This document shows positions 2,653 through 47,055 of a stretch of 64,000 bases of DNA, piece by piece. The notes under the pieces were generated by a model. That model did not search any database. It was not told where the DNA came from and saw only the letters and a program-made list of their open reading frames with translations. The stretch lies in the IMG/VR virus record IMGVR_UViG_3300015608_002795, positions 1-64,000 of that record, one strand, 5' to 3'. Within the stretch, counting starts at the first letter, position 1, and each line of letters opens with the position of its first letter. A program made the translations under genes and the position numbers. This DNA is from a virus. Its lineage: Duplodnaviria > Heunggongvirae > Uroviricota > Caudoviricetes.

Positions 2653-2744
2653 GCGTCGGTTCGCTTAGTTGGCCTAAAGCATCAGACTTTTAATCTGAAG
2701 AGATAATGTTCTCAACCGTGGGTTCGAATCCCACCCGGCGTACA
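2653..2744 (+). tRNA. tRNA, class-II architecture (long variable arm GAGA/TCTC), anticodon loop CTTTTAA (UUU), A73
   Basis: hand fold: acceptor GCGTCGG/CCGGCGT (2 GU), anticodon stem TCAGA/TCTGA, T-arm GTGGG-TTCGAAT-CCCAC. Confidence 0.5.
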
Positions 2745-2750
2745 AAAAAC

Positions 2751-2838
2751 TCCTTCGTATCCGTAGCTGGTCGAACGGTCCTGACTCTTAATCAGATGTG
2801 AGAAATCACCACCGTGGGTTCGAATCCCACCGAAGGAA
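2751..2838 (+). tRNA. tRNA, class-II architecture, anticodon loop CTCTTAA (CUU), A73
   Basis: acceptor TCCTTCG/CGAAGGA perfect; variable arm GTGA-GAAA-TCAC; T-arm GTGGG-TTCGAAT-CCCAC. Confidence 0.5.
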
Positions 2839-2842
2839 CTAA

Positions 2843-2915
2843 CCTCTTGTAGCAAACTGGCAGTAGGCAACGGTCTTTTAAACCGTGGGGCCGGGTTCGA
2901 TTCCCGGCGGGAGGA
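2843..2915 (+). tRNA. tRNA-Lys (UUU), canonical 73 nt
   Basis: acceptor CCTCTTG/CGGGAGG; anticodon stem ACGGT/ACCGT with loop CTTTTAA; T-arm CCGGG-TTCGATT-CCCGG. Confidence 0.65.
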
Positions 2916-2942
2916 CAAATTTTAACTCAATGGGTAGAGTAA

Positions 2943-3704
2943 ATGATTATATATATTATTATGAATAAGGAAACACTATTAAAATATATATCTGATAATT
3001 TGTCTACTCGTGAAATCGCCAAATATGAAGGGGTGACACAATCTAAAGTTAAATATTGGATAAAAAAATATGAAATAAAAACAAAATATTCGGCTTTTGG
3101 TAAGGGAATATCACCAAAAAGAGAAAAACAAGAATTTAATATAGAAGATATAGCTATAAAAAAAGATAGAGTATATAACTATTTATATGGACTATATTTA
3201 GGCGATGGATGCTTATATAAAAGAAAGGATAGAAATGTATCAACAATAACATTTTCTTTAGATAAAAAATATCCAAATATAATTAAGCAGTGTGAGTCGT
3301 ATTTACATGATTTATTTGGTAAATTTCCATATATTTATCATAGAAAAAATTCTAATTCCGTTGATGTGAAATATACATCTATTATAGTCGATAAACTTTT
3401 TTTAAAATACGGAAGTGGGAAAAAACACATGAATGGTATTTATTTACCTAAAATATTAGTAGATAATATTCACTACGATTGTTTATTAAAAGGGTTGTTC
3501 CATTCTGATGGTTCTTATTATTTTAATAATAGATCAGGCACTTATTGTTATAGTTTTACTAATAAAAGTATTGATATACTAAATATTTTTTCAAGATGTC
3601 TAAATTTTTATGATGTAAAGCATAGTTTATCAAAAGATCATATAATGATTCAATCGAATAAGGAAGTCAAAAAATTATATAAAATATTGGAACAAAAAAA
3701 TTAA
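2943..3704 (+). CDS. LAGLIDADG family homing endonuclease
   Basis: two LAGLIDADG motifs 'LYGLYLGDGC' and 'LKGLFHSDGS'; N-terminal HTH 'LSTREIAKYEGVTQSKVKYW'. Confidence 0.85.
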   Translation: MIIYIIMNKETLLKYISDNLSTREIAKYEGVTQSKVKYWIKKYEIKTKYSAFGKGISPKREKQEFNIEDIAIKKDRVYNYLYGLYLGDGCLYKRKDRNVSTITFSLDKKYPNIIKQCESYLHDLFGKFPYIYHRKNSNSVDVKYTSIIVDKLFLKYGSGKKHMNGIYLPKILVDNIHYDCLLKGLFHSDGSYYFNNRSGTYCYSFTNKSIDILNIFSRCLNFYDVKHSLSKDHIMIQSNKEVKKLYKILEQKN

Positions 3705-3709
3705 AAATT

Positions 3710-3946
3710 ATGGAAACGCTAACAACAATAAGAGAAAGATTAGAAACACATTATGAAGGTGTTTATAGAAAGATATGGGTTCAAGGCAGTGCTCGTCATG
3801 GTCAAAATGATATTTTATTAACTCTATTTCCTTCAAATAGTGACGGATACAAAATTGTATCTATGAGAAAGCTAAGAAATATTTCATTTGAAGAAGTGTT
3901 TACAGTACTACAAAGAGAATTAAGTATTACAAATATATTAGAGTAA
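3710..3946 (+). CDS. hypothetical protein (78 aa)
   Basis: intact ORF, tightly packed after the preceding gene. Confidence 0.4.
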   Translation: METLTTIRERLETHYEGVYRKIWVQGSARHGQNDILLTLFPSNSDGYKIVSMRKLRNISFEEVFTVLQRELSITNILE

Positions 3947-3961
3947 TTTAATATATAATGG

Positions 3962-4975
3962 ATGAGGTATATCAAAAAATATGAATCTTATAATAAACTT
4001 GATGAAATATTAGATATATTTATTGACTTTGAAGAAGAAGGATATGTAGTTAATAGTTTTGAGTTAAAAATAGTTGAGGATAGGGATGATTGGGGTGGAA
4101 ATTTTATATCCGAAAAGTTAAGACATGTTTATGGTAAAAAGTTTATAAACTATCATAAAGATGTAATTATGAGTAAAGGAGAAAAAACATATAAAGCTAA
4201 AGATGCTATTATTGTTAGAATATCAAAAACAAATTATATAAAAGATTTAACGGATAGAAAAATACATTGGAAAAAATTAGACTCTGAAATGTCTAAAAAA
4301 ACAGATGTTATAAAAAATAGATCTGAGTTTTTAAACTTAAGTTTATATGGGGTCATGGCTGAATGGTATCAACTTGGAAAGGCAGTACATGATGATTTTC
4401 GAGGTGAACCATATTTTGGATATGATGTTATTAATGATTGTTATACATTTGCATTTTATCCATCCGAAAAAGTACTTGAAAAATTTTATAATCCACCGTC
4501 TGAAATAAAAGAAAAATTACATTCTATTGTAAATGATCTATTATCTAAACACGAAGGTGGTAAGCCATTTTTTGACGCATTGGATGATGCTATTAAGGAT
4601 GTTTATAATGAAGATATGATTCTTGCTTTATTAAAGGGCAATTCAAATGAATGGATAGCAGCATCTGGTGGATTTGGAGATAGGGTCTATAACCTATGGA
4701 AAAGGGGAAAATTTAGGTGTAAAGGAATAGTTGTCTTCAATGGTAAAATGATGACAAATAAAACCGGAGTAAACAATTGGTATCCACCAGATTTCGATTT
4801 ATCAAACAAGGATTATGTATATGTAGATGATTCTTATTTTTCTGGTGGAACTGCAAGAAAAATAAATGGATTTTTATCTGAACACAATTCAAAAATTAAA
4901 CACGTATCTGTTATATATGATGGATCAAAGGAAAAAAGTAAACTAGTTAAATCATTTTTTAGATACTACAAATGA
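3962..4975 (+). CDS. phosphoribosyltransferase-fold protein (PRPP-binding motif)
   Basis: 'YVYVDDSYFSGGTARKI' matches the type-I PRTase / Prs PRPP-binding loop (hydrophobic-DD-x-x-TGGT). Confidence 0.5.
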   Translation: MRYIKKYESYNKLDEILDIFIDFEEEGYVVNSFELKIVEDRDDWGGNFISEKLRHVYGKKFINYHKDVIMSKGEKTYKAKDAIIVRISKTNYIKDLTDRKIHWKKLDSEMSKKTDVIKNRSEFLNLSLYGVMAEWYQLGKAVHDDFRGEPYFGYDVINDCYTFAFYPSEKVLEKFYNPPSEIKEKLHSIVNDLLSKHEGGKPFFDALDDAIKDVYNEDMILALLKGNSNEWIAASGGFGDRVYNLWKRGKFRCKGIVVFNGKMMTNKTGVNNWYPPDFDLSNKDYVYVDDSYFSGGTARKINGFLSEHNSKIKHVSVIYDGSKEKSKLVKSFFRYYK

Positions 4976-5024
4976 AACACATAAAATTTAATCAAACAAC
5001 TCTTTATAGACCAATTAATGGTCA

Positions 5025-5309
5025 GTGATTTCTTTAAAGCATATGTCATCGCTTGATTTTAATGGAGAGCTTGGATCTATACATATAAAATTATTAGAGG
5101 ATGATGATACATATATTTTAATTTCACTAGGATATAATCATGATATGAAATTTGATATGATGACGTGGACAGATCTTGAAATATGTAAAAATGGAATTCG
5201 TGGGAAAGCATCATGGATGAGACAAGTGAGTCATGGATTAGAAGGATCTTTATTTGATAAAGTAGCAAATTATCTAACAGATAATGAATTAGTTGGCCCT
5301 ATTATTTAA
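5025..5309 (+). CDS. hypothetical protein (94 aa)
   Basis: intact ORF. Confidence 0.35.
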   Translation: MISLKHMSSLDFNGELGSIHIKLLEDDDTYILISLGYNHDMKFDMMTWTDLEICKNGIRGKASWMRQVSHGLEGSLFDKVANYLTDNELVGPII

Positions 5310-5314
5310 ATAAT

Positions 5315-5345
5315 TTTGGTGGGAATAAAAAAAATCGTATCTTTG
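5315..5345 (+). promoter_or_regulatory. Bacteroidetes-type sigma-A promoter (-33 TTTG / -7 TATCTTTG)
   Basis: 'TTTGGTGGG..(20 nt)..CGTATCTTTGTG' read in sequence; motif recurs before most transcription units. Confidence 0.55.
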
Positions 5346-5586: not shown

Positions 5587-5675
5587 GGTGAGTTAAGCAG
5601 CTACATTGGAGTGGCGACCAGCTTTGAAACCTGGGTTTCGTTAAATCGGATGGGGGTCGGGTCCTCAGCTCACCG
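5587..5675 (+). tRNA. tRNA, class II, Ser(UGA)-like with C31:C39 mismatch and atypical T-loop GTCGGGT
   Basis: acceptor GGTGAGT/GCTCACC; anticodon region CCAGC-TTTGAAA-CCTGG; variable arm TTCG/CGGA. Confidence 0.4.
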
Positions 5676-5679
5676 CAAT

Positions 5680-5767
5680 GGAGGGATGGCAGAGTTGGTC
5701 TATTGCACCTGACTTGAAATCAGGAGGTCGGGCAACCGATCCGTGGGTTCGAATCCTACTCCCTCCT
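5680..5767 (+). tRNA. tRNA-Ser (UGA)
   Basis: acceptor GGAGGGA/TCCCTCC perfect; anticodon stem CCTGA/TCAGG with loop CTTGAAA; long variable arm; T-arm GTGGG-TTCGAAT-CCTAC. Confidence 0.65.
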
Positions 5768-5772
5768 CAAAT

Positions 5773-5845
5773 GTTCTTGTAGCTCAACGGTTAGAGTTTT
5801 CCGCTTCGAACGGAAAGGATGTAGGTTCGAATCCTACCAAGAATT
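5773..5845 (+). tRNA. tRNA-Arg (UCG)
   Basis: acceptor GTTCTTG/CAAGAAT; anticodon stem TTCCG/CGGAA with loop CTTCGAA; T-arm GTAGG-TTCGAAT-CCTAC. Confidence 0.65.
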
Positions 5846-5894: not shown

Positions 5895-6467
5895 ATGAAA
5901 TACACAGTATATAAAATAACAAATTTAATAAACGGTAAAATTTATATCGGAGTTCATAAAACAGAAAATTTAGACGATGGATATATGGGATCTGGTAAAA
6001 ATATAAAAAGAGCTATTGACAAATATGGAATTCAAAATTTTAAAAAAGAATATATTAAAATATTTGACAATCAAGAAGATATGTTTAAAATGGAGTCTGA
6101 GTTGGTAAATGAATTATTTTTATCTAGTCGTGAGAATTATAATATAATGAAAGGAGGTCATGGAGGATTTGAACATATAAATAAAAATTGTTGGAATAAA
6201 GAAAGTAGAAAAAATCATCTACAAAAAATATATCATTTGGTTTCAGCTGAAAAAAGAAAGGATATCGGTGCATATATGGGTAAAAACTTTGGGGGTAGTA
6301 ATAGATTAAGAGAGGATGTAATAAATTATAGATTAAAAATACTCGAAACAGTTGATATGTCTAAATATGGTTGGGTAGAAAAAGCTAGTAAATTATTAAA
6401 TATAACACATACACAAGTTAGGAGATTTGTAAATAAATATTATAAAGGAGAATATTATAGAAGATAA
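5895..6467 (+). CDS. GIY-YIG family homing endonuclease
   Basis: 'KYTVYKITNLINGKIYIGVHKT..GYMGSGKNIKRAIDKYG' GIY-YIG core. Confidence 0.8.
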   Translation: MKYTVYKITNLINGKIYIGVHKTENLDDGYMGSGKNIKRAIDKYGIQNFKKEYIKIFDNQEDMFKMESELVNELFLSSRENYNIMKGGHGGFEHINKNCWNKESRKNHLQKIYHLVSAEKRKDIGAYMGKNFGGSNRLREDVINYRLKILETVDMSKYGWVEKASKLLNITHTQVRRFVNKYYKGEYYRR

Positions 6468-6553
6468 GGAGAGTAAAGTAGCCAGGGTGCTACCACCGCC
6501 TGCTAAGCGAGTGGATCGGGTAACTGATTACGTTTCGAGTACGTTGCTCTCCG
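6468..6553 (+). tRNA. tRNA-Ser (GCU)-like, class II, anticodon stem with bulged A
   Basis: acceptor GGAGAGT/GCTCTCC; D-stem GTAGC/GCTAC; anticodon loop CTGCTAA; T-arm ACGT-TTCGAGT-ACGT. Confidence 0.5.
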
Positions 6554-6557
6554 CCAT

Positions 6558-6646
6558 GGTAAAATACCCAAGAGGATGTAAGGGGCTTGCTTGGAAAGCA
6601 AGTAGGTCGGGAAACTGGCGCATGAGTTCGAATCTCATTTTTACCG
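6558..6646 (+). tRNA. tRNA-Ser (GGA)
   Basis: acceptor GGTAAAA/TTTTACC perfect; anticodon stem CTTGC/GCAAG with loop TTGGAAA; long variable arm; T-arm ATGAG-TTCGAAT-CTCAT. Confidence 0.6.
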
Positions 6647-10095: not shown

Positions 10096-11988
10096 ATGGA
10101 CTATTTAAGTTATTTAACGTCGCCGTGGGCAATCGGCATCGCTTCTGTTCTCTTTGTGCTATTTACATGGAAATGGATTCTAAGAGTATTATGTGGTATG
10201 GTGTTGATCCCCGAAGACAAAATTGGTCTTGTGACCAAAAAGTTCGTTCTATTTGGAGCAAATAAATCGCTTCCTGATGGACGAATTATCGCATTAAATG
10301 GAGAGGCTGGATACCAAGCAGACCCTCTCGCACCTGGACTTTATTTCGGGTATTGGATTTGGCAATATGATATTACTCTACAGGGATTTACAAAAATTCC
10401 TCAAGGTCAAATCGGACTTGTAATCGCAAAAGATGGTAATGAGTTACCAGCAGGTAGTATCCTCGCAAACGCAGTATCATGTGACAACTTCCAAGATGCT
10501 CGAAAATTCTTAACATCAGGTGGTAAAAAAGGTAAACAAGTTAGTTACATCAACACAGGTGTTTATCGTATTAACACATTGTTGTTTGATGTTATACCAG
10601 CTGAGATTCAAACTATTGAAGATGGTCAAGTAGGTGTAATAACTACACTCGATGGTGTTCCTCTTCAACAAGGCCAAATCGCGGGTAAAGATGTTCCAGG
10701 TCATAACAACTTCCAAGATTTTGATGTCTTTTTAAGTGGTGGTGGACAAAGAGGTCTACAAACTCAAGTAGTTCTTGCGGGTTCTTACGCTATCAACCCA
10801 TGGGCAGTTACAATTGAAAAAGTGCCAATGACTGAAGTTGGTATTGGTAATGTTGGTATCGTTATCTCCTATGTAGGTGATGAAGGTGTTGACACATCTG
10901 GTCAAGAATTCAAACACGGTAACATCGTAGGCAAGGGCCAAAAAGGTGTTTGGAAAGATCCTTTAGATCCGGGTAAATATCCTATCAACCCATATACACA
11001 CAAAATTCAAGTTGTACCAACAACTAACCTTGTGTTGAACTGGGCGGACGCAAGAACCGAGTCTCACAACTTAGATAAAAATCTAAGCACAATTACCGTT
11101 CGTTCTAAAGACGGTTTCCAATTTAACTTGGATGTATCTCAAATCATTCATATTCCTTCAACAGAAGCTCCTAAAGTAATTGCTCGTTTCGGTAGCATTC
11201 AAAACCTTGTATCTCAAGTTCTTGAACCTACTATTGGTAACTACTTCCGTAACTCAGCTCAAGATTCTGATGTTATTGCCTTCTTAAGTTCTCGTAAAGA
11301 ACGTCAAGATGCAGCAAAAGGACGTATCTCTGAAGTATTAAAAGAGTATAATGTATCTGCAGTGGATACTCTTATCGGTGACATCACACCTCCTGGTGAT
11401 TTGATGAAAACCCTTACTGATCGTAAAATTGCATCAGAGGAAGAAAAGACTTATGAAACTCAGATGAACGCTCAAAAAGTTAAGCAAACTCTTGAAAAAG
11501 AAACTGCGTTAGCTAATAAGCAAAAGGAAATCGTAGATGCTCAGCAATCAGTTCAAATCGCTGAACGTAGAGCTGAAGCTTTTGTTAAAGAAGCAGAAGG
11601 TAAAGCGAAATCAGTTAAACTTAACGCAGGTGCTGAAGCCGAAGCTACTAAACTACGTGCTGAAGCAAAAGCTTACGAAACTGAACAAGTGGGTAAGGCT
11701 GAAGCAACTAAGATTGAAAGCATTGGTAACGCAACTGCTGAAGCTTATAGAAAACAAGTTGAAGCTATGGGTAGTGATAACTTCTCCAAATTCAAAATCA
11801 CTGAAGAAATCGGAAAGAATGGTATCAAAATCATTCCTGAAGTTCTTATCACTGGTGGTGAAAATGGTGGTCCTATCTCTGGATTACTTGGATTGGAACT
11901 CCTTAAAAAGATTCAATCAGACAGTTCTACTGAAATGAAAACTGAATCGAAAGATGAAGTTAAAACAGTAGTATCAGATAAGAAATAA
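10096..11988 (+). CDS. SPFH/band-7 (flotillin-like) membrane protein
   Basis: N-terminal TM helix; SPFH-like core; C-terminal alanine/glutamate-rich coiled coil 'AEAKAYETEQVGKAEATKIES..' typical of flotillins. Confidence 0.75.
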   Translation: MDYLSYLTSPWAIGIASVLFVLFTWKWILRVLCGMVLIPEDKIGLVTKKFVLFGANKSLPDGRIIALNGEAGYQADPLAPGLYFGYWIWQYDITLQGFTKIPQGQIGLVIAKDGNELPAGSILANAVSCDNFQDARKFLTSGGKKGKQVSYINTGVYRINTLLFDVIPAEIQTIEDGQVGVITTLDGVPLQQGQIAGKDVPGHNNFQDFDVFLSGGGQRGLQTQVVLAGSYAINPWAVTIEKVPMTEVGIGNVGIVISYVGDEGVDTSGQEFKHGNIVGKGQKGVWKDPLDPGKYPINPYTHKIQVVPTTNLVLNWADARTESHNLDKNLSTITVRSKDGFQFNLDVSQIIHIPSTEAPKVIARFGSIQNLVSQVLEPTIGNYFRNSAQDSDVIAFLSSRKERQDAAKGRISEVLKEYNVSAVDTLIGDITPPGDLMKTLTDRKIASEEEKTYETQMNAQKVKQTLEKETALANKQKEIVDAQQSVQIAERRAEAFVKEAEGKAKSVKLNAGAEAEATKLRAEAKAYETEQVGKAEATKIESIGNATAEAYRKQVEAMGSDNFSKFKITEEIGKNGIKIIPEVLITGGENGGPISGLLGLELLKKIQSDSSTEMKTESKDEVKTVVSDKK

Positions 11989-12470: not shown

Positions 12471-12666
12471 AGATACAAATTGGATGAATGATAAAATCCA
12501 AGATATAAAAAAGAGAAAAAGAAAGCTCGAATTACTTCAAGATCCTGAAATGAAAAAAAGAATAAAAAAGGACTTGAAACGTGAATATCGTTCTGTAAAA
12601 AGGGGAGAACGCAATCAAAATAATATATATATGAAAAAAGAAATTGATGAATTCTATAGAAAATAA
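12460..12666 (+). CDS. hypothetical basic protein (68 aa)
   Basis: Lys/Arg-rich ORF. Confidence 0.3.
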   Translation: MKVKDTNWMNDKIQDIKKRKRKLELLQDPEMKKRIKKDLKREYRSVKRGERNQNNIYMKKEIDEFYRK

Positions 12667-13366
12667 CTTTTATGTATATGTACATATAAACAAAAATACT
12701 GATTTGCCATTTTATGTAGGATTTGGCCGAAAAAATAGAATACTTGATAAAGGAAGAAGGAGTGCTGAATGGAACGATATTGTTAGTCAATATGGATATT
12801 ATTTTGGTACACTTAAACACAATATGACGAGAGAAGAAGCCAATTTATTTGAAAAGAAATGTATAAAATTTTTTATTGAAATTGGATTCAATCTTGTTAA
12901 TAAAATCAATGGTGGGAGTGGAAATTCTAAAAGAAAGCCATATAGTGAAGAATATAAAAAAATATTATCAGAAAGAGGGAAAAAATATTGGAAATCTTTA
13001 TCCAAAGAAGAAATTGATAAATTTTCACAAAAAATGTCATCTATATTAAAAGGTAAAAAGAAGCCAAAGAGAACAAAAGAGCATTGTAAAAATCTATCAA
13101 TATCACATAAAGGACAAAAAGCATGGAACAAAGGGTTGATACTAAATTATTCAGATGATATAAAATCAAGAATGTCTGATCATTCTAAAAAGAAAGTTAT
13201 AATATTCGACTTAAATGATAATAAAATTGGTGAATTTGATTCAATATCAAATGCAGCAAAAAAAATTGGACTGACCCCCAATAAGGTTAGTAAAATTCTA
13301 ACAGGAAGAATCAAAAAGAGTGAATATAAAATTTTTTATTTAAATGAATTTGGTGAACAAAAATGA
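12644..13366 (+). CDS. GIY-YIG homing endonuclease with NUMOD3 repeats
   Basis: 'NFYVYVHINKNTDLPFYVGFGRKNR..GRRSAEWNDIV' and 'KNLSISHKGQKAWNKG'. Confidence 0.8.
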   Translation: MMNSIENNFYVYVHINKNTDLPFYVGFGRKNRILDKGRRSAEWNDIVSQYGYYFGTLKHNMTREEANLFEKKCIKFFIEIGFNLVNKINGGSGNSKRKPYSEEYKKILSERGKKYWKSLSKEEIDKFSQKMSSILKGKKKPKRTKEHCKNLSISHKGQKAWNKGLILNYSDDIKSRMSDHSKKKVIIFDLNDNKIGEFDSISNAAKKIGLTPNKVSKILTGRIKKSEYKIFYLNEFGEQK

Positions 13367-33992: not shown

Positions 33993-33994
33993 TA

Positions 33995-36094: not shown

Positions 36095-36957
36095 TTCAGA
36101 TTAGAATTGATAATGATGCAAATTATAAGTCTATTTTTTTCAATGGTAAAACCATAAGACAAAAAATAAACGGAAATATTCCAATTACCTCACCAAAATT
36201 TGCAGAAATAGAGGATGTTGCTATAAACAGTAAATGTTTTGCTAATTGTAATTATTGTTATGTGTCTGCTCTATCATCTGGAGAAAATTTTGATAATATT
36301 GTGGAGAAATCTATAGACGTTTGGGGATCCGTTAGTCAAAATAGTCGACCATTTCAAATTGCTATAGGAGGTGCTGGTGAACCAACTCTACATCCACAAT
36401 TTATAGACTTCATAAAATCTGTTAAGGACTTAGGAATAACACCTAATTATACAACAAATGGTATGCATTTATCTTCTGATATATTAGAATCCACAGAAAA
36501 ATATTGCGGGGGTGTGGCACTTAGTTATCATCCGCATATAAAAAAAGTATTTGATATTGCAATAAAAAAGTTAAAATCTATTAAAACAAAACTCAATATT
36601 CATATAATATTGGGAACTGATCAATCATTAATTGATGTAAAAAATTTGTACGAAATACATAAAGATGATATTGAATATTTTGTGATACTACCATATCAAG
36701 CATCAGGAAGAGGAAAGGAAATAGAAACTTCTTTAGTATGGAATAATTTTTTTAATTTTATATACTCACTACCAGAAAGATATCAATCCAAGTTTGCATT
36801 TGGTGCCTTATTTTATAAGTGGATTAATGAAAATGATATCAAATTAGATATAGATATATATGAGCCAGAAATATATTCTGGATATAGAATAATGGATGAC
36901 TCATATAAAACACTAAGAATATCAAGTTATAATACAAATCCTAAAAATAATATATAA
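36091..36957 (+). CDS. radical SAM enzyme (CxxxCxxC)
   Basis: 'CFANCNYCYV' cluster-binding motif about 50 aa from the ATG at 36091. Confidence 0.6.
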   Translation: MIQIRIDNDANYKSIFFNGKTIRQKINGNIPITSPKFAEIEDVAINSKCFANCNYCYVSALSSGENFDNIVEKSIDVWGSVSQNSRPFQIAIGGAGEPTLHPQFIDFIKSVKDLGITPNYTTNGMHLSSDILESTEKYCGGVALSYHPHIKKVFDIAIKKLKSIKTKLNIHIILGTDQSLIDVKNLYEIHKDDIEYFVILPYQASGRGKEIETSLVWNNFFNFIYSLPERYQSKFAFGALFYKWINENDIKLDIDIYEPEIYSGYRIMDDSYKTLRISSYNTNPKNNI

Positions 36958-37588: not shown

Positions 37589-38758
37589 ATGAAAATTGAT
37601 ATAAACAAAATAAAAATAACACCAGAAAAACTTGGATTTAATTTCTGCCAATTTGGTGAATTAACAGAAGAAGTAAAATCTTGGGTTGATTTTTGGAAAT
37701 TTAAAACAGAAAAATCAGGACCATTTACTAACATAATAGTTGGTGATATAGATTTTGAATTAATATTCAATGAATCAGTCAGTTACGACTATGTAGATGG
37801 ATTTAGTCCTAACCTAAATAAACATCTTCATGTTGGACATTTATCAAATCTTGTTATTGCAAATGCAATGCAGAAATTGGGAATAGGAAAAGAGTTCATT
37901 GCAATATTAGGTGATACCTTAGATGGTGAGGTAAATAAGTCAGATGCACTTTCATCATACCAAAAATATTGTCAAGAATTCAATTATAAAGTAGATAAAA
38001 TTTTTTACGCTTCTGACATGAAATTAAAGGATGATATTTTAAAAGAGGGAGAAGGTGACTACTTAGGATCAAAAGTATTTGATTTAGGTGATGAAAAAAT
38101 AGTTGGAATAAAGAGTTCTGGATTAACATCTTACTTTTATCAAGATGTTGCCTTAGCTCAACACTTAAATTCATCGACTCTTTATCTGACTGGTTTTGAA
38201 CAGGATAATCACTTCAAATCATTAAAGAAGCTATTTCCATCGACAAACCATATAGGTTTAGGATTAGTTCTTCTAAATGGTAAGAAAATGTCAAGTAGTG
38301 AAGGTAATATCATTCTATTAAAAGATTTTATAAACCAACTATTAGAAATGTTTAATGATATAAAATTGGTTTATAATATTTTAGCTGGTCAAATTTTAAA
38401 ATCAGCACCAGGTAGTAGTAAATCAATTGATATGAAACTAATTAGTAATCCTAAATTATCACTTGGGTTATATTTAAGTTACACTATGGCACATATTAAA
38501 AGTTGTGGAGTAGAAACAAAAAAAATTAAAAATTATGTATCAGAGGAATTACAATTTGCAGAACTAAAATCAAAAGTAAATTTAAGTCCTAATTTATTAT
38601 TTGAATCTCTAGTAAAACACTGTAAGTCAATTAATAAGTTATATGAGACACATTATATAAAAAACAACAAAGAAAATATAGAACTTTTCTCTACACTAAT
38701 CTCTGATTTAGAGTTAGGAATGAGTAAATTAGGTATGTTTTCCATTGATAAAGTATAA
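37589..38758 (+). CDS. class-I aminoacyl-tRNA-synthetase-like catalytic core (ArgRS-like: 'LHVGHLSN' HIGH and 'KMSSS'), no anticodon-binding domain
   Basis: 'FSPNLNKHLHVGHLSNLVIANAMQKLG' resembles the ArgRS/CysRS HIGH region; 'KMSSSEGN' is KMSKS-like; 389 aa versus more than 550 aa for a full ArgRS. Confidence 0.55.
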   Translation: MKIDINKIKITPEKLGFNFCQFGELTEEVKSWVDFWKFKTEKSGPFTNIIVGDIDFELIFNESVSYDYVDGFSPNLNKHLHVGHLSNLVIANAMQKLGIGKEFIAILGDTLDGEVNKSDALSSYQKYCQEFNYKVDKIFYASDMKLKDDILKEGEGDYLGSKVFDLGDEKIVGIKSSGLTSYFYQDVALAQHLNSSTLYLTGFEQDNHFKSLKKLFPSTNHIGLGLVLLNGKKMSSSEGNIILLKDFINQLLEMFNDIKLVYNILAGQILKSAPGSSKSIDMKLISNPKLSLGLYLSYTMAHIKSCGVETKKIKNYVSEELQFAELKSKVNLSPNLLFESLVKHCKSINKLYETHYIKNNKENIELFSTLISDLELGMSKLGMFSIDKV

Positions 38759-38847: not shown

Positions 38848-38922
38848 GATAAATATCACTGTAGTTCAACTGAATAGAATTGAGGTTTCCTAAACTTCGG
38901 ATGTGGGTTTGATTCCCACCAG
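38848..38922 (+). tRNA. tRNA-like (acceptor ATCACTG/CAGTGAT perfect, T-arm GTGGG-TTTGATT-CCCAC, aberrant anticodon region)
   Basis: lies at the 3' end of the minus-strand HNH gene. Confidence 0.3.
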
Positions 38923-39630
38923 TGATTCATAATATTTAATCCATTTCCTTATGGAGTTATCACTAACCCCATATTTTCTACCCGTGCCACAGTACCCTAA
39001 TCTTTTCACATCATCTAATATTACATCATAATTTGGCCTTTTTACTTTTCTTGTTTGTGATTTATCTTGTTTATTAAAACATTTTAAGCACATTTTAGAG
39101 TGTTTTAATATTTTCATACCACAAACACAATATGTATTTTTTTTATTTAATTTATTAAATAAATATTCATCATAATCAAAATCAAAAATATTTAAATTCT
39201 CCTTATTTATATTTTCTATTATTGTTTTTATGATGTCTTTATTAAAGCAAACAGAAAAATGTATTTCGTATAATTTCCAGTTTGATTTTTCTATTATATC
39301 ATGCCTATTTTGATAATAGGCTTTCAAATTACCATTTTTTTCATAATGTTGGTTACCATTTATTTCTATTCCAACTTTTTTATTAGGAAAGGCAATATCT
39401 ATTGAAAAATGTCTATCAGTAAGTGGTGTAAATTCTTCAACATATAAAATATTCATTTCATATAGAGCTTCTTTGAATTTATTACAAGGTATTGATTTGA
39501 ATTTTTCTTTTGATTTCCAGTTATGTTTGTCGGGGTTATTTTTATAAAATTCTTTTCTTGAGTTTGATATTTTTAATTTTGTAGATTCTGATATTTTTTT
39601 ACCACGCTTTGTTAGTCCAATATTTCCCAA
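38890..39630 (-). CDS. HNH-family homing endonuclease-like protein; separate HTH mini-ORF upstream in another frame (39639-39719, minus strand)
   Basis: C-terminal HTH 'YGVSDNSIRKWIKYY' as in the 34131 HNH; the upstream 26-codon ORF 'MNEIVIKLRKSGKSIREIAIDIGVFA' is an HTH. Confidence 0.6.
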   Translation of the reverse strand: MGNIGLTKRGKKISESTKLKISNSRKEFYKNNPDKHNWKSKEKFKSIPCNKFKEALYEMNILYVEEFTPLTDRHFSIDIAFPNKKVGIEINGNQHYEKNGNLKAYYQNRHDIIEKSNWKLYEIHFSVCFNKDIIKTIIENINKENLNIFDFDYDEYLFNKLNKKNTYCVCGMKILKHSKMCLKCFNKQDKSQTRKVKRPNYDVILDDVKRLGYCGTGRKYGVSDNSIRKWIKYYESLVGIKPTSEV

Positions 39631-45716: not shown

Positions 45717-45790
45717 CGGGTAGTGTGGACAATTGGGAGTCTCCTCCGTCTGGACCGGAGTGAATGCAGGTTCGAGCCCTGTCTACCCGA
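45717..45790 (+). tRNA. tRNA-Pro (UGG)-like (C33 in loop TCTGGAC)
   Basis: acceptor CGGGTAG/CTACCCG perfect; anticodon stem CTCCG/CGGAG; T-arm GCAGG-TTCGAGC-CCTGT. Confidence 0.5.
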
Positions 45791-45849: not shown

Positions 45850-45924
45850 CGAGAATGTGTTGTAAACCGGTTGCATACTTCCCCTGGAAGGAAGAGGAGT
45901 GGTTCGAATCCAACATTTTCGACA
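45850..45924 (+). tRNA. tRNA-like (UGG hairpin CTTCC-CCTGGAA-GGAAG), weak T-stem
   Basis: acceptor CGAGAAT/ATTTTCG (1 GU); T-loop TTCGAAT present. Confidence 0.3.
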
Positions 45925-46052: not shown

Positions 46053-46123
46053 GGTCTATTAGTTTAATGGTAAAATGTCAGCTTGTCACGCTGATGTCAC
46101 GAGTTCGATTCTCGTATAGACCG
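46053..46123 (+). tRNA. tRNA-Asp (GUC)
   Basis: acceptor GGTCTAT/ATAGACC perfect; anticodon stem TCAGC/GCTGA with loop TTGTCAC; T-arm ACGAG-TTCGATT-CTCGT. Confidence 0.65.
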
Positions 46124-46156: not shown

Positions 46157-46229
46157 GGTCGTTTAGGGGAGAGGTCGTCCCTGCCGGCATGTGGGCCGGA
46201 GAGCGGTGGTTCGAATCCATCAGCGACCG
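46157..46229 (+). tRNA. tRNA-His (GUG)-like with 6-nt anticodon loop ATGTGG and extra 5' G(-1)
   Basis: acceptor GGTCGTT/AGCGACC preceded by G; D-arm GGGG-AGAGGTCGT-CCCT; anticodon stem CCGGC/GCCGG perfect; T-arm GGTGG-TTCGAAT-CCATC. Confidence 0.5.
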
Positions 46230-46361: not shown

Positions 46362-46445
46362 GGTCCCGGCGCATAATGGCTGGTGCAGCGGATTGTCACT
46401 CCGTGGATTTAAAAACCGTAGTGGGTTCGATTCCCATCGGGACCG
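46362..46445 (+). tRNA. tRNA with GUC (Asp) anticodon and 16-nt variable region
   Basis: acceptor GGTCCCG/CGGGACC perfect; anticodon stem GCGGA/TCCGT with loop TTGTCAC; T-arm GTGGG-TTCGATT-CCCAT. Confidence 0.55.
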
Positions 46446-46452
46446 CAAATAA

Positions 46453-46529
46453 CGAGATGTTGGGGAGTCCGGTTACCCCGCCTGCTTTGGGAGCAGGAGA
46501 ACTCGCAGGTTCGAATCCTGCCATCTCGA
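46453..46529 (+). tRNA. tRNA-Pro (UGG)
   Basis: acceptor CGAGATG/CATCTCG perfect; D-stem GGGG/CCCC; anticodon stem CCTGC/GCAGG with loop TTTGGGA; T-arm GCAGG-TTCGAAT-CCTGC. Confidence 0.7.
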
Positions 46530-46543
46530 CAAAAATTAAAAAA

Positions 46544-46600
46544 TGAGAATCGTAATATCATATCAGCAACAGCAACAACAAATTGATCGAACAGATTGAT
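46544..46600 (+). CDS. 18-codon mini-ORF with a run of six Gln codons (MRIVISYQQQQQQIDRTD)
   Basis: ATG with upstream A-rich leader; CAG/CAA x6; followed by the terminator at 46621-46659; embedded in a tRNA-Gln-rich array. Confidence 0.3.
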
Positions 46601-46620
46601 AAGGAGTTGTATTGCTAAAC

Positions 46621-46659
46621 TAACCCCACTCAATTTGTTTTGAGTGGGGTTTTTTATTT
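46621..46659 (+). terminator. intrinsic terminator (AACCCCACTCAA..TTGAGTGGGGTT + T-run)
   Basis: 10-bp stem and TTTTTTATTT. Confidence 0.6.
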
Positions 46660-46663
46660 AAAT

Positions 46664-46734
46664 TGTCTCGTGGTGAAGTGGTATCACGGCGGTCTTTGGT
46701 CCCGCAGGTCCTGGTTCAATTCCAGGCGAGATAA
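46664..46734 (+). tRNA. tRNA-Gln (UUG), T31:C39 mismatch
   Basis: acceptor TGTCTCG/CGAGATA; D-stem GTGA/TCAC; loop CTTTGGT; T-arm CCTGG-TTCAATT-CCAGG. Confidence 0.55.
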
Positions 46735-46741
46735 CAAATAT

Positions 46742-46812
46742 TTTAGGGTCATCTAACGGCAGGATGGGAAGCTTTGAACTTTCAAATGCTGGTTCGAATC
46801 CAGCCCCTAAAA
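46742..46812 (+). tRNA. tRNA-Gln (UUG), T1:A72
   Basis: acceptor TTTAGGG/CCCTAAA perfect; anticodon stem GGAAG/CTTTC with loop CTTTGAA; T-arm GCTGG-TTCGAAT-CCAGC. Confidence 0.55.
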
Positions 46813-46817
46813 CACAT

Positions 46818-46899
46818 TGAGATGTAGCGTAATGGTAACGCATCCGCCTTTGAAGCGGTGGAAGAAATTCCCCTGTAGGTTCGACCCCTACCATCTCAA
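46818..46899 (+). tRNA. tRNA with UUG (Gln) anticodon and 15-nt variable arm (GGAA/TTCC)
   Basis: acceptor TGAGATG/CATCTCA perfect; D-arm GCG-TAATGGTAA-CGC; loop CTTTGAA; T-arm GTAGG-TTCGACC-CCTAC. Confidence 0.5.
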
Positions 46900-46902
46900 C
46901 AT

Positions 46903-46976
46903 TGCTCTATTGTATATGGGTTTGATTACGTCTGTCTTTGAAGCAGAAGAGCTTGGTTCGAGTCCAAGTGGAGCAA
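46903..46976 (+). tRNA. tRNA-Gln (UUG)
   Basis: acceptor TGCTCTA/TGGAGCA; anticodon stem TCTGT/GCAGA with loop CTTTGAA; T-arm CTTGG-TTCGAGT-CCAAG. Confidence 0.55.
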
Positions 46977-46982
46977 CTAAAT

Positions 46983-47055
46983 TGACTTGTCGTATAACGG
47001 TTAATTACACTCGCCTCTGAAGCGAAAAATATTGGTTCGAGTCCAATCAAGTTAA
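46983..47055 (+). tRNA. tRNA-Gln (CUG)
   Basis: acceptor TGACTTG/CAAGTTA; D-stem GTA/TAC; anticodon stem CTCGC/GCGAA with loop CTCTGAA; T-arm ATTGG-TTCGAGT-CCAAT. Confidence 0.6.

Follow-up and report, generated by a model that had tools for sequence, protein, structure and literature searches.

What does an exceptionally dense array of tRNA genes do in a viral genome, and how did it arise? The stretch analysed here (the window; 64,000 nucleotides) was described in an initial annotation as holding about 55 tRNA or tRNA-like genes in eight clusters, read as a family of diverging copies and not as compensation for codon usage.

Census of the tRNA array

tRNA genes were called with ARAGORN at default settings and with Rfam RF00005 at its gathering score. 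ARAGORN identified 41 genes in the window, which span 2653-47056 and share the + orientation, and Rfam identified 43 (E-values 3e-13 to 0.03). Their union comprises 47 firm tRNA genes at 2653-47055, on the + strand only, rather than a dozen or so, and ARAGORN made no calls in any of 10 mononucleotide shuffles of the window. These results confirm the super-array. Relaxed searches added nine sub-threshold tRNA-like genes, on the + strand and inside the same intergenic clusters (starts at 5592, 6468, 19412, 22566, 30950, 33472, 33859, 33994 and 45967), three of which (30950, 22566 and 6468) have independent support. The total is 47 firm genes and up to 56 with the sub-threshold ones, and the original estimate was a fair one. 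All eight clusters are present, and a single Arg(CCU) gene at 38855 lies outside them. The duplicated families had also been counted correctly: Tyr(GUA) has three genes and one aberrant member, Gln five UUG and one CUG, Glu(UUC) three, Asp(GUC) two firm and two odd, Pro(UGG) three, Lys three, and Ser three firm, of which one has an odd loop (CGA), and two sub-threshold.

The source of the window is a huge phage, whose relatives include IMG/VR contigs of up to 483 kb and LR745206.1 (634,780 bp), the closest published genome, which carries an array of the same kind. The array packs roughly 50 tRNA genes into ~44 kb of what is a very large phage genome. As had been proposed, its density and redundancy go well beyond those of the sets in T4-like and most jumbo phages. 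Since up to 67 tRNAs have been reported in complete huge-phage genomes (PMC7162821), and given the LR745206.1 array, its size has precedent. The tRNA genes other than the long-variable-arm, D-rewired and irregular or sub-threshold ones are listed below (called by ARAGORN and Rfam unless stated).

2843-2915, +, canonical tRNA-Lys(UUU); 100% identity in L044
5508-5580, +, tRNA-Arg(GCG)
5680-5767, +, class II tRNA-Ser(UGA)
5773-5845, +, tRNA-Arg(UCG)
6558-6646, +, class II tRNA-Ser(GGA)
18521-18594, +, initiator-type tRNA-Met(CAU); 1:72 mismatch, anticodon stem with GGG/CCC
18814-18896, +, class II tRNA-Tyr(GUA)
18993-19063, +, canonical tRNA-Glu(UUC)
19069-19140, +, canonical tRNA-Glu(UUC)
19509-19590, +, tRNA-Tyr(GUA)
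19596-19678, +, tRNA-Tyr(GUA), CCA encoded
25649-25721, +, tRNA-Gly(UCC), CCA encoded
30766-30855, +, tRNA-Leu(UAA)
30862-30941, +, tRNA-Leu(AAG)
31188-31258, +, canonical tRNA-Asn(GUU), G73
31367-31439, +, canonical tRNA-Ile(GAU)
33256-33328, +, canonical tRNA-Val(GAC)
33571-33642, +, canonical tRNA-Thr(GGU), U73
33761-33850, +, tRNA-Leu(UAG); ARAGORN
34737-34819, +, tRNA-Leu(CAA)
38855-38927, +, tRNA-Arg(CCU)
45717-45790, +, tRNA-Pro(UGG); ARAGORN, Rfam 26 bits in relaxed search
46053-46123, +, canonical tRNA-Asp(GUC), G73; Rfam 70 bits
46285-46355, +, tRNA-Gln(UUG)
46453-46529, +, tRNA-Pro(UGG), 7-nt variable loop
46664-46734, +, tRNA-Gln(UUG)
46742-46812, +, tRNA-Gln(UUG)
46903-46976, +, tRNA-Gln(UUG)
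46983-47055, +, tRNA-Gln(CUG)

Paralogue lineages and architectures

That the paralogues have clearly different bodies holds: the closest pair in the window shares 77% identity, and at such values (≤77%) they are evidently not recent duplicates. Describing them as diverging copies is too simple: the paralogues are old, structurally distinct lineages conserved across related phages. The initial interpretation is supported in part. Three architectures occur: canonical, long-variable-arm and D-rewired. Many isoacceptors are represented by one canonical and one non-canonical tRNA, and for many amino acids a normal tRNA is accompanied by an oddly built one in which an arm is added or the D loop lies elsewhere.

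Nine class-I tRNAs, for Lys, Glu, Asn, Cys, Val, Thr, Asp and Gln, carry a long variable arm. The arm is supported by compensatory changes, and the discriminator base is that of the canonical partner. One body, or chassis, can serve different isotypes; some phages have a given long-arm body as Asn(GUU), with G73, where others have it as Lys(UUU), with A73. All nine genes were called by ARAGORN and Rfam.

2653-2741, +, tRNA-Lys(UUU), 19-nt variable arm, A73; body common to Asn(GUU) tRNAs of L005, L045 and L046
2751-2838, +, tRNA-Lys(CUU), 17-nt long variable arm, A73
19153-19238, +, tRNA-Glu(UUC), long variable arm with 5-bp stem and GAAG loop; hairpin -9.2 kcal/mol, p = 0.000 vs shuffles
31533-31618, +, tRNA-Asn(GUU), long variable region, G73
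32271-32357, +, tRNA-Cys(GCA), long variable arm, U73; L003, L046, L052 and L060 likewise have long-arm Cys genes
32363-32448, +, tRNA-Val(UAC), 16-nt variable region without stable stem
32457-32541, +, tRNA-Thr(UGU), long variable region, U73
46362-46445, +, tRNA-Asp(GUC), long variable region, G73; L015 orthologue 87% identical, its variable region a 4-bp stem
46818-46899, +, tRNA-Gln(UUG), long variable arm with 4-bp stem and GAAA loop

In the D-rewired Ile and Arg tRNAs the anticodon arm is enclosed by a helix, followed by a D-loop-like motif. Covariation for this architecture is strong, and the family comprises 33 matches (29 distinct sequences) in ~18 phage contigs, LR745206.1 and two MAG contigs. 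Members were scored with a family model, R1.

21693-21773, +, tRNA-Ile(UAU), 81 nt; Rfam 41.3 bits (alignment with D arm deleted and 22-nt insertion), R1 94.2 bits, covariation
30950-31029, +, tRNA-Arg(UCU), 80 nt; R1 77.7 bits, not called by ARAGORN default or at the Rfam gathering score; canonical Arg(UCU) at this position in L003
31446-31526, +, tRNA-Ile(GAU), 81 nt; Rfam 30.1 bits, R1 93.6 bits; RNAfold encloses the anticodon hairpin by ACCC/GGGT

The remaining genes are irregular or sub-threshold, and some members of the array are plain remnants (e.g. 941-1018 and 23545-23609).

941-1018, +, 3' remnant of tRNA-Trp gene; relaxed ARAGORN only; 980-1041 is 97% identical to L044 8016-8075, overlapping its tRNA-Trp
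5592-5676, +, degenerate sub-threshold Ser(UGA)-like tRNA, poor acceptor stem and T loop; ARAGORN -ps85 only
6468-6556, +, sub-threshold tRNA-Ser(GCU), perfect 7-bp acceptor stem, G73, CCA encoded; ARAGORN -ps85
19412-19505, +, aberrant Tyr(GUA)-like tRNA; Rfam tRNA-Sec 26 bits, relaxed ARAGORN, no match to R1
22240-22322, +, tRNA-Gly(UCC), 14-nt D-loop insertion; Rfam 45.8 bits
22566-22646, +, divergent tRNA-Ala(UGC), G3:U70, A73, CCA encoded, unusual T loop; relaxed ARAGORN, 87% identical copy in phage contig L050
22696-22769, +, tRNA-Gly(GCC) without GG/T-loop consensus; Rfam 43.4 bits, L050 copy 84% identical
23545-23609, +, tRNA-Ala-like gene, 7 nt replacing the anticodon arm, G3:U70 and A73 retained; Rfam 46.3 bits; a deletion derivative of tRNA-Ala in L065 (1122-1196)
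31290-31360, +, class-I-shaped tRNA, odd anticodon loop CGCGAAA ("CGA"); ARAGORN and relaxed search; comparable gene at L046 6302-6376
33379-33451, +, tRNA with 6-nt anticodon loop (AUCGAG); ARAGORN, Rfam 56.4 bits
33472-33565, +, sub-threshold tRNA-like sequence, canonical T arm; ARAGORN -ps85
33859-33990, +, 133-nt tRNA-like sequence, acceptor-like stem and canonical T arm; ARAGORN intron mode, RNAfold
33994-34067, +, sub-threshold tRNA(CAU); Rfam 24.4 bits, relaxed ARAGORN
45851-45921, +, irregular Pro(UGG)-like tRNA, 8-bp acceptor stem, short T stem, C33; Rfam 32.7 bits, 99-100% identity in L015
45967-46041, +, tRNA-Asp(GUC) just under the Rfam gathering score; 28.4 bits, relaxed ARAGORN
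46157-46229, +, Asp-like body, 6-nt anticodon loop (AUGUGG); ARAGORN and relaxed search

Codon demand and the translation island

tRNA gene copy number does not track codon use, in line with the initial reading. Copy number correlates weakly with amino-acid use (Spearman 0.43, p = 0.06); Gln makes up 2.6% of residues yet has six tRNA genes, and CGN codons are rare yet have two tRNAs. The occurrence of odd tRNA forms beside normal ones, conserved in related phages, suggests a reserve decoding system maintained by the virus itself. The array is best read as a putative autonomous decoding set, which would resist host tRNA nucleases and may be reshuffled by homing endonucleases.

Besides the tRNA array, the translation island contains 10 homing endonuclease genes and three genes for RNA ligases, along with four truncated aminoacyl-tRNA synthetase (aaRS)-like genes that adjoin their cognate tRNAs. 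The endonuclease genes at 22819-23463 and 32586-33254 are paralogues.

1067-1858, +, GIY-YIG/NUMOD3 homing endonuclease (Pfam GIY-YIG 2e-8, NUMOD3 1.9e-8); an insertion relative to the close relative L044, where it is absent
2943-3704, +, LAGLIDADG homing endonuclease (Pfam LAGLIDADG_3 1.1e-10); by synteny, its site holds three Lys tRNA genes in L044
5895-6467, +, GIY-YIG (SegE-like) homing endonuclease (Pfam SegE_GIY-YIG 3e-5, GIY-YIG 3e-4)
12644-13366, +, NUMOD1 homing-endonuclease-like gene (Pfam NUMOD1 1e-7)
22819-23463, +, HNH homing endonuclease (PHROG 1271 6.8e-20, Pfam HNH)
25845-26564, +, NUMOD3/HNH homing endonuclease (Pfam NUMOD3 2e-7, HNH 9e-5)
31662-32315, +, homing-endonuclease-like gene (PHROG 559, HNH endonuclease, 1.4e-11; PHROGs 3339, 9084)
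32586-33254, +, HTH-HNH homing endonuclease (PHROG 1271 2.9e-27)
34041-34733, +, HNH homing endonuclease (PHROG 10822 4.5e-36)
1764-2531, +, truncated TrpRS-like gene, 255 aa, TIGNYLG and KMSKS motifs (Pfam tRNA-synt_1b 1.9e-38; NCBIfam trpS 2.6e-36, under cut-off)
23695-24486, +, AlaRS catalytic-core-like gene, putative start codon (Pfam tRNA-synt_2c 1.8e-17; NCBIfam alaS 1.9e-18, under cut-off)
24470-25190, +, GlyRS-like class-II core, split over two ORFs (Pfam tRNA-synt_2b 1.1e-8; NCBIfam glycine--tRNA ligase 5.7e-7 and 1.4e-4)
37589-38758, +, ArgRS-like catalytic core gene, 389 aa, HVGH motif (NCBIfam argS 2.2e-8, far under cut-off; weak Pfam match)
13611-14270 and 14254-14973, +, two adjoining RNA-ligase-family genes (Pfam RNA_ligase 1.1e-8 and 1.7e-27)
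35047-35658, +, RNA ligase gene (PHROG 548, RNA ligase, 6.7e-33)

Extent and setting of the tRNA array

With default settings ARAGORN identified 41 tRNA genes in the window, all on the plus strand between positions 2653 and 47056, and the Rfam tRNA model RF00005 identified 43 at its gathering score. The union of the two sets comprises 47 genes, which we refer to as firm; many genes are cited below by their start. ARAGORN made no calls in any of ten shuffles of the window. Relaxed searches added nine tRNA-like sequences within the same intergenic clusters:

Starts 5592, 6468, 19412, 22566, 30950, 33472, 33859, 33994 and 45967, plus strand: sub-threshold tRNA-like sequences

Some of these are clearly real genes. 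The sequence at 30950 scores 77.7 bits with a dedicated family model, that at 22566 has G3:U70, A73 and CCA and is 87% identical to a gene of another phage contig, and that at 6468 has a perfect acceptor stem, G73 and an encoded CCA. The 47 firm genes and nine sub-threshold candidates bear out the initial annotation, which had estimated about 55 tRNA or tRNA-like genes; the predictors recovered 47 rather than only a dozen or so bona fide tRNAs. All eight clusters in which it had placed them were found, with a lone gene at 38855 to be added, and its counts for the duplicated anticodon families agree with ARAGORN, Rfam and the relaxed searches.

The decoding set is nearly complete and almost all codon boxes are covered. 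No Phe, His, Trp or firm Ala tRNA is encoded within the window; tRNAs for Phe, His and Trp are carried just upstream in a close relative. Alongside canonical tRNAs the array contains class-I isotype tRNAs with a class-II-like variable arm (long-arm tRNAs) and Ile and Arg tRNAs in which a helix encloses the anticodon arm (rewired tRNAs). The four-arm cloverleaf, with a D arm between the acceptor stem and the anticodon arm, is absent at 21693, 30950 and 31446, and is present in the other firm genes except 23545, which lacks an anticodon arm. Two or more architectures occur within the window for Lys, Glu, Asn, Asp, Gln, Ile, Val and Thr, and in related contigs a long-arm or rewired gene often adjoins a canonical one.

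The 3' ends of the genes are also distinctive. Of the 47 firm genes only 2 encode CCA; 45 have C immediately 3' of the discriminator, and in 26 this position is followed by CAAA. The same CAAA follows 138 of 305 tRNAs of related loci and 14 of 33 rewired tRNAs, the rewired genes having the same C/CAAA trailer as their canonical neighbours, and it often makes up the entire 4-6 nt spacer between adjacent genes (e.g. 5768-5771 and 19064-19067). Its frequency and its position in the spacers suggest a clade-wide processing signal, which we predict on these grounds.

The window has a GC content of approximately 29% and most of its genes are on the plus strand. PHROG and Pfam matches to homing endonucleases and an RNA ligase support a phage origin, and protein relatives are confined to viral contigs and collections, several of these contigs being 348-483 kb long. 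No near-identity emerged when 20 kb of the window were compared by megablast with 50,697 phage records, the sole match being 54 bases long. A more sensitive search using one tRNA cluster identified the closest published record, LR745206.1, deposited without annotation as an "uncultured phage" of 634,780 bp; the DNA match is 77%, and the tRNA array of this record is collinear, with 31 ARAGORN calls in 40 kb as well as rewired Ile and Arg genes. No terminase or capsid gene is present within the window. At L001 and L002, the comparison loci that carry relatives of the ArgRS-like gene, no tRNAs were found within 10 kb.

According to the accessible portion of PMC7162821, the largest huge-phage genomes are placed in a "Mahaphage" clade with predicted Bacteroidetes hosts and up to 67 tRNAs per genome, tRNA number increases with genome size, and huge phages carry genes for tRNAs, for synthetases and for ligases acting on tRNAs that host defences have cleaved. 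Those genomes thus resemble the window in carrying tens of tRNAs with synthetases and RNA ligases. Their tRNAs were counted with tRNAscan-SE, and the same portion of the report makes no mention of canonical/non-canonical pairing or of the long-arm and rewired classes. In the overall explanation that we favour on balance, the array would be a huge phage's tRNA island, and this phage would be a relative of those with the largest genomes known.

Long variable arms on class-I isotypes

Nine firm genes (Lys UUU, Lys CUU, Glu, Asn, Cys, Val UAC, Thr UGU, Asp and Gln) have variable regions of 15-20 nt, and none of their anticodons (UUU, CUU, UUC, GUU, GCA, UAC, UGU, GUC and UUG) is a Leu, Ser or Tyr anticodon. 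In bacteria such long arms are otherwise confined to Leu, Ser, Tyr and Sec tRNAs (PMC7609411 and general knowledge). Most of the arms consist of a 3-5 bp stem and a four-base loop, usually GNRA-like, with 3-4 unpaired nucleotides on the 3' side. Stems of 4-5 bp, giving the paired arm of more than 10 nt that characterizes class II, are present at 2653, 2751, 19153, 31533, 32271 and 46818, while in Val 32363, Thr 32457 (no more than a 3-bp stem in ARAGORN) and Asp 46362 the variable region is long but weakly structured, with no stable stem. Introns were rejected as the source of the extra length, which lies in the variable region and not after position 37; the intron mode of ARAGORN returned only implausible calls hundreds of bases long.

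The trait is clade-wide. Of the 269 distinct tRNAs that ARAGORN called in the window and related loci, approximately 46, from 14 class-I isotypes, have long variable regions; three of these calls are rewired Ile or Arg tRNAs. Across the clade the long form usually adjoins a canonical isodecoder. The variable regions fold better than shuffled sequences (Wilcoxon p = 5.5e-7), and in a 12-sequence alignment of the chassis (a tRNA body common to different isotypes) found in Asn and Lys tRNAs, 97% of the arm helix is paired and two of its three pairs show compensatory changes. Judged from these comparisons of sequence, the arm shows signs of being under selection.

The discriminator is common to the long-arm tRNAs and their canonical partners, being A for Lys, Glu, Val and Gln, G for Asn and Asp, and U for Thr; long-arm Cys has U73 and no canonical Cys partner in the window. 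The Asn/Lys chassis, in which the D arm, the anticodon stem UCAGA/UCUGA and the T arm GUGGG/CCCAC are constant in every copy, carries GUU with G73 in the related loci L005, L045 and L046, and UUU with A73 and another acceptor stem at window position 2653 and in L048. Its isotype therefore appears to have been switched from Asn to Lys by the anticodon, discriminator and acceptor stem alone, which favours correct cognate charging and argues against mischarging with Ser or Leu of the kind associated with allo-tRNAs and nev-tRNAs.

LeuRS requires A73, the base present in the long-arm tRNAs for Lys, Glu, Val and Gln. A long arm with G73, as in the Asn and Asp long-arm tRNAs, corresponds to the SerRS identity set (PMC7609411), and the allo-tRNAs (PMC5389517) and nev-tRNAs (PMC3333845) offer precedents. 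Such features could be taken to indicate deliberate mistranslation or recoding, in which SerRS, LeuRS or TyrRS would accept these tRNAs on account of the long arm, and codons such as those for Lys, Asn and Asp would be partly read as another amino acid. We regard this as very improbable. Cognate discriminators and anticodons are kept, and are altered together when the isotype changes; the arms leave 3-4 unpaired 3' nucleotides, compared with 1-2 in the phage's own Ser tRNAs and 2 in its own Leu tRNAs, and have a stem of 3-5 bp; the acceptor/T branch is 7/5, not 8/4 or 9/3; and stop-codon use and ORF density look standard.

Both precedents also differ from the long-arm tRNAs. Allo-tRNAs and (8/4) phage tRNA-Ser/His, which come from metagenomes and phage clusters and likewise have long arms on anticodons other than those of Ser, Leu and Tyr (PMC5389517), possess an 8/4 or 9/3 branch, a long D stem with a tetraloop and a predicted Ser identity with G73 or U73 (PMC5389517); "polycistrons of irregular tRNAs" have been described among them (Mukai et al., PMC5389517). 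Membership of the long-arm genes in this group was rejected on the 7/5 branch that all of them show in the ARAGORN folds; they also have ordinary D arms and the cognate discriminator. Set against the allo-tRNA Ser identity, Asn and Asp have G73 and Cys and Thr have U73, both of these being cognate discriminators as well; Lys, Glu, Val and Gln have A73. Only 45851-45921 looks like an 8/3-8/4 branch. The nematode nev-tRNAs (PMC3333845) are similarly class-II-shaped with class-I anticodons (Gly and Ile), but they come from eukaryotes and receive Leu in vitro, contrary to the code, whereas here the discriminator fits the isotype of the anticodon and a canonical isodecoder is paired with the long form.

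T arms are more alike among long-arm tRNAs (75%) than among short ones (59%), a likeness that a common origin of long-arm and class-II tRNAs and a shared structural constraint explain equally well. The reverse change, from class-II to class-I shape, is seen in 13 Leu sequences of the clade, which have short variable loops of 4-8 nt:

L016 150-549; L003 5052-5128 and 6722-6794 (related loci): short-variable-loop Leu tRNAs (UAG, UAA, CAA, CAG)

Rewired Ile and Arg tRNAs and other irregular members

Three genes of the window follow an 80-81 nt plan in common with a gene of the related locus L046:

21693: rewired tRNA, anticodon UAU
31446: rewired tRNA, anticodon GAU
30950: rewired tRNA, anticodon UCU

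ARAGORN at default settings misses all three and Rfam at its gathering score misses one, so tRNA counts for huge phages may be low. In the Rfam alignments these genes lack the D arm, and 21693 also has a large insertion. The plan opens with a 7-bp acceptor stem, U-A and one or two further bases, the 5' strand of a three-base helix and one base, continues with the anticodon arm (5 + 7 + 5), four bases and the 3' strand of the three-base helix, then has the motif U-A-A-Y-U-G-G-N-N-A and a linker usually ending in UGAAAAU, and closes with a canonical T arm, the 3' strand of the acceptor stem and the discriminator. The nucleotides after U8-A9 thus pair with those after the anticodon arm in a new helix of 3-4 bp; since this helix encloses the anticodon arm, the latter occupies the usual place of the D loop. 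The D-loop-like motif lies between the new helix and the T arm, and both the GG of this motif and the T arm GGTTCRAWTCC are kept.

A covariance model of the family, R1, was built from four sequences (the three window genes and the L046 gene). It returned 33 matches, 29 of them distinct, in approximately 18 viral contigs, as well as two in LR745206.1 and one in each of two MAG contigs. The anticodons are GAU, UAU, one CAU, UCU, UCG and one CCU; the class is therefore restricted to Ile and Arg, unless the CAU gene reads Met. In the model-guided alignment 96.5% of cells pair, compared with 38-46% when the partners are slid. The new helix itself is 96.6% paired and all three of its pairs change on both sides (e.g. 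CG 12, AU 9, GC 8), and RNAalifold alone predicts the same structure. In LR745206.1 the rewired Arg(UCU) gene adjoins a canonical one. A cellular origin of the class was rejected: a search of one genome for each of 185,579 species yielded only the two short MAG contigs, of 3.3 and 8.7 kb, which are made of tRNA arrays and are likely mis-binned phage DNA. The Tyr-like sequence 19412-19505, considered as a further family member, was rejected, as it has no match to R1.

When the secondary structure is read against canonical numbering, position 26 would be the lone base that separates the new helix from the anticodon stem, the 5' strand of this helix would correspond to positions 22-25, and its 3' strand with the following U and AAYUGGNNA would correspond to positions 10-13 and the D loop (A14, R15, Y16, Y17, G18, G19, N20, A21). 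We infer from this model that block 10-21, originally 5' of the anticodon arm, has moved to its 3' side. This would create the junctions 9-22, 43-10 and 21-49, which join residues that are close together in the canonical L-shape, so the D-stem/anticodon-stem stack and the D-loop/T-loop elbow could both be kept. An origin by tandem partial duplication followed by deletion is plausible but speculative.

In Cyanidioschyzon merolae, circularly permuted tRNA genes have the 3' half before the 5' half and processing restores a normal tRNA. The rewired class shares with these genes a departure from the canonical segment order, but its acceptor strands follow each other normally, only an internal block seems to be transposed, and nothing here suggests processing back to the canonical order. 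The D-arm-lacking mitochondrial tRNAs, as described in the accessible portions of PMC4013460 and PMC12221289, likewise have no hairpin between the acceptor stem and the anticodon arm and are presumed decoders. In the mitochondrial forms the replacement loop is short, the T loops are degenerate and adapted partner proteins are required. The rewired class differs in its canonical T arm, its D-stem-like helix and an AAYUGG motif moved to the 3' side of the anticodon arm.

Some members of the array depart from the canonical form in other ways. Among the Gly genes, 22240 (UCC) has a 14-nt D-loop insertion, and 22696 (GCC) lacks the GG and the T-loop consensus, with an 84% identical copy in the related locus L050. 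The tRNA-Ala-like sequence 23545-23609 has no anticodon arm, but G3:U70, A73 and both the D and T arms are retained. An AlaRS-core-like ORF (23695-24486) lies 85 nt downstream. The sequence is a deletion derivative of the normal tRNA-Ala at L065 1122-1196 (LR745206.1), and may be a pseudogene, a substrate of AlaRS or a mimic with a regulatory role. Good bodies with 6-nt anticodon loops, AUCGAG and AUGUGG, are found at 33379-33451 and 46157-46229, respectively. The gene at 31290-31360 has the odd loop CGCGAAA, and a class-I-shaped gene with the anticodon CGA is similarly placed at L046 6302-6376; a Ser anticodon on a class-I body gives no obvious identity. The Pro(UGG)-like gene 45851-45921 combines C33 with an acceptor stem of 8 bp and a T stem of 3-4 bp. 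Its counterpart at L015 8202-8281 is 99-100% identical in flanks of 74-84% identity, a difference that points to strong constraint or recent transfer. No fold was settled for 33472-33565, 33859-33990 or 19412-19505. Given the clearly damaged or odd members 941-1018, 23545-23609, 5592-5676 and the genes with 6-nt loops at 33379 and 46157, part of the array is decay; other members may be further designs.

Several of these genes (33379 and 46157 with their 6-nt loops, 23545 and the irregular 45851) seem ill-suited to decoding, and irregular tRNAs that are charged yet unused in translation have been described (PMC5389517). The non-canonical members might thus be decoys or inhibitors of host tRNA nucleases, modification enzymes or synthetases, or regulatory mimics (e.g. 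23545), but we consider this quite unlikely. The long-arm and rewired tRNAs keep 7-nt loops, U33 and anticodons for heavily used phage codons, their acceptor arm, T arm and 3' trailer stay normal, and the Ile and Arg codons AUA (644 occurrences) and AGA (432), the main ones of their type, are matched in the window by rewired tRNAs only. For the rewired class, a decoding role with a permuted core is a possibility that we put forward tentatively. The class would then be the first natural tRNA topology of its kind outside organelles, and together with the class-II-shaped isodecoders, which span at least 14 class-I isotypes, it might form a second, parallel adaptor set for translation under attack on canonical tRNAs, possibly with the phage's truncated synthetases.

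Just upstream of the rewired tRNA-Ile(UAU), at 21630-21690, are two near-identical hairpins (CCCAGTCA...TGACTGGG), each followed by a T run, that by sequence resemble twin intrinsic terminators.

Gene turnover, codon use and proposed function of the array

Ten free-standing homing endonuclease genes are interleaved with the tRNA clusters, among them the following, which are shown with the genes related to RNA ligases and aminoacyl-tRNA synthetases:

1067-1858: GIY-YIG homing endonuclease gene, adjoining a tRNA cluster
5895-6467: GIY-YIG homing endonuclease gene (SegE_GIY-YIG, 3e-5), adjoining a tRNA cluster
2943-3704: LAGLIDADG homing endonuclease gene
12644-13366: HNH or NUMOD gene
22819-23463: HNH or NUMOD gene
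25845-26564: HNH or NUMOD gene
31662-32315: HNH or NUMOD gene
32586-33254: HNH or NUMOD gene
34041-34733: HNH or NUMOD gene
13611-14270: RNA-ligase-family gene
14254-14973: RNA-ligase-family gene
35047-35658: RNA-ligase-family gene
1764-2531: truncated TrpRS-like gene, beside a tRNA-Trp remnant (an intact tRNA-Trp in the close relative L044)
~23695-24486: AlaRS-core-like gene, within the Gly/Ala sub-cluster
24470-25190: GlyRS-like gene, within the Gly/Ala sub-cluster
37589-38758: ArgRS-like gene, beside tRNA-Arg(CCU)

The four truncated synthetase-like genes each adjoin cognate tRNA genes. Their scores are far below the family cut-offs and they lack anticodon-binding domains; catalytic motifs are kept in the two class-I members, TIGNYLG and KMSKS in the TrpRS-like and HVGH in the ArgRS-like protein. 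These genes may be inactive or do something else.

Comparison with L044 revealed how the array changes. Several window tRNA genes are 98-100% identical in this relative, in flanks that are 85-100% identical. At the Lys cluster, however, two long-arm Lys genes of the window correspond in L044 to 436 bp devoid of tRNA genes, and the LAGLIDADG gene of the window corresponds to three other Lys genes; relative to L044, a GIY-YIG gene is also inserted beside the tRNA-Trp remnant. Flanks that are 96-100% identical to L044 around a Lys cluster of different content, and the inserted endonuclease genes, indicate that gene content turns over quickly at endonuclease-marked sites. The individual tRNA lineages are nonetheless old. 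The closest pair in the window is 77% identical, which rules out recent duplication, and most pairs are 60-70% identical. With this maximum identity and with differing architectures, the paralogues do have the clearly different bodies that the initial annotation had ascribed to them; the redundancy of the set is one of architecture and not of sequence.

The presence of ten homing endonuclease genes among the clusters, the difference in gene content between near-identical relatives and the obvious remnants at 941-1018, 23545-23609 and 5592-5676 would all be expected under neutral accumulation, in which endonucleases and recombination during co-infection move tRNA genes and the odd copies are passengers or decaying pseudogenes. 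As an account of the whole array this is nevertheless unlikely: the two main architectures keep their lengths and helices through compensatory changes among phages whose proteins are 40-70% identical, discriminators and anticodons stay consistent, and some odd genes exceed their flanks in conservation, as does 45851-45921 in L015.

A tally of 16,554 codons was used to compare tRNA gene number with demand. Gln accounts for 2.6% of residues and has six genes, Pro accounts for 2.8% and has three, and the CGN codons total 109 although both Arg(GCG) and Arg(UCG) are encoded. Overall, amino-acid use and tRNA gene number correlate weakly (Spearman 0.43, p = 0.06). Most anticodons have U34 or G34, fitting the dominant A/U-ending codons. 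This fit, the coverage of nearly every codon box and the rise of tRNA number with genome size in huge phages (in the accessible portion of PMC7162821) are what codon-usage compensation alone would predict, the AT-rich phage (~29% GC) supplying tRNAs for A/U-ending codons with extra copies for dosage. Copy number follows amino-acid use too weakly, and the Gln, Pro and CGN genes fit it too poorly, for this to be a likely explanation; dosage would be better served by identical copies than by paralogues of differing architecture that are at most 77% identical, and the conserved long-arm and rewired forms are left unexplained. The same weak correlation supports the initial annotation's view that the redundancy goes beyond codon-usage compensation.

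We lean to the explanation that the phage has an autonomous translation supply that tolerates nucleases, its architectures serving as back-up for one another. With this tRNA set an AT-rich phage would go on translating if the tRNAs of the host did not suit it or were being destroyed, whether by tRNA-cleaving defence nucleases of the host or by the phage's own host shut-off. Alternative architectures would provide a second decoder per codon that such enzymes do not recognize, RNA ligases could repair cleaved tRNAs, and truncated synthetases together with the retained discriminators and anticodons could keep charging correct. Recombination between related phages, driven by homing endonucleases, would add, remove and swap tRNA genes. 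The genes and their structures, with their conservation and covariation, are shown directly, as are the endonuclease-linked differences between close relatives and the mismatch of copy number and codon use; we infer expression, aminoacylation and decoding by the non-canonical tRNAs, as well as the evasion of defence.

The usual prey of anticodon nucleases are Lys, Glu and Gln tRNAs with U34 and Tyr, Asp and Asn tRNAs with G34. These are also the most multiplied families of the array, which favours an autonomous, nuclease-tolerant supply. According to the accessible portions of PMC13096335, PMC10264068, PMC11464382 and PMC11555353, bacterial defences cut the anticodon or variable loops of specific tRNAs and so deplete them, phage tRNAs whose loops are altered escape, and under that nuclease pressure the homing endonuclease SegB amplifies phage tRNA genes. 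The structural variants, ligases and homing endonucleases of the array would offer indirect support for resistance of its tRNAs to host nucleases. Some tRNA-targeting enzymes use a long variable arm as a determinant (PMC13096335), and the arm is therefore not obviously protective.

In the T-even and T5 regions, as the accessible portions of the same four reports describe them, tRNAs are likewise clustered with free-standing GIY-YIG or HNH genes, phage tRNAs differ from those of the host in the loops cut by nucleases, and endonucleases drive changes in tRNA gene content. These regions contain 8-25 tRNAs of normal architecture that escape through point differences or dosage, whereas here whole architectures stand side by side. 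As in SegB-type amplification (PMC13096335), GIY-YIG Seg-family genes adjoin tRNAs at 1067-1858 and 5895-6467. Tandem repeats of a tRNA and endonuclease segment of the SegB type are absent from the window, in which tRNA copies are at most 77% identical and HNH paralogues 45-52% identical to each other.

Large tRNA sets in huge phages, clusters of tRNA and endonuclease genes, and anti-defence tRNAs are already known. The largely subscription-free literature searched in full text contains no description of systematic pairing of canonical and non-canonical isodecoders, of class-II-shaped tRNAs for many class-I amino acids with cognate discriminator and anticodon, or of a rewired Ile/Arg tRNA class in phages. 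Why phages carry tRNAs has been debated for decades. Here canonical and different forms with the same anticodon occur in one genome, a pairing that related phages conserve; the two forms are directly comparable and constitute a natural experiment in which expression, charging, decoding and sensitivity to tRNA-cleaving defences could be compared. If the rewired and long-arm tRNAs work on the ribosome, they would widen the structural limits of bacterial-type tRNAs, show how far the D and variable regions can be rearranged, and provide scaffolds for orthogonal tRNA design. For annotation, the consequence is that standard tRNA finders miss or misread these genes.

Recoding of stop codons was rejected for the window, which has no suppressor tRNA, uses TAA 50, TGA 14 and TAG 11 times and has an ORF density that looks standard. 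Some relatives encode tRNA(CUA) amber suppressors (L004 5488-5561, L006 3033-3104 and L025 7062), and one has a tmRNA gene (L011 512-886), of which the window has none. Other genes of the window include:

10096-11988: SPFH/Band 7 protein gene
16379-16999: non-specific DNA/RNA endonuclease gene
27343-29274: TonB-dependent receptor gene (Plug and beta-barrel domains)
36046-36957: radical SAM gene
58515-60632: ClpB-like double AAA+ ATPase gene
61357-63069: GT2-GT6 glycosyltransferase fusion gene

The radical SAM gene lies between an RNA ligase gene and the ArgRS-like gene and weakly resembles prokaryotic viperins (42 bits, far below the cut-off). The TonB-dependent receptor gene is kept in at least 11 related viral contigs at 38-56% identity, and fits a Bacteroidota host without being proof of one.
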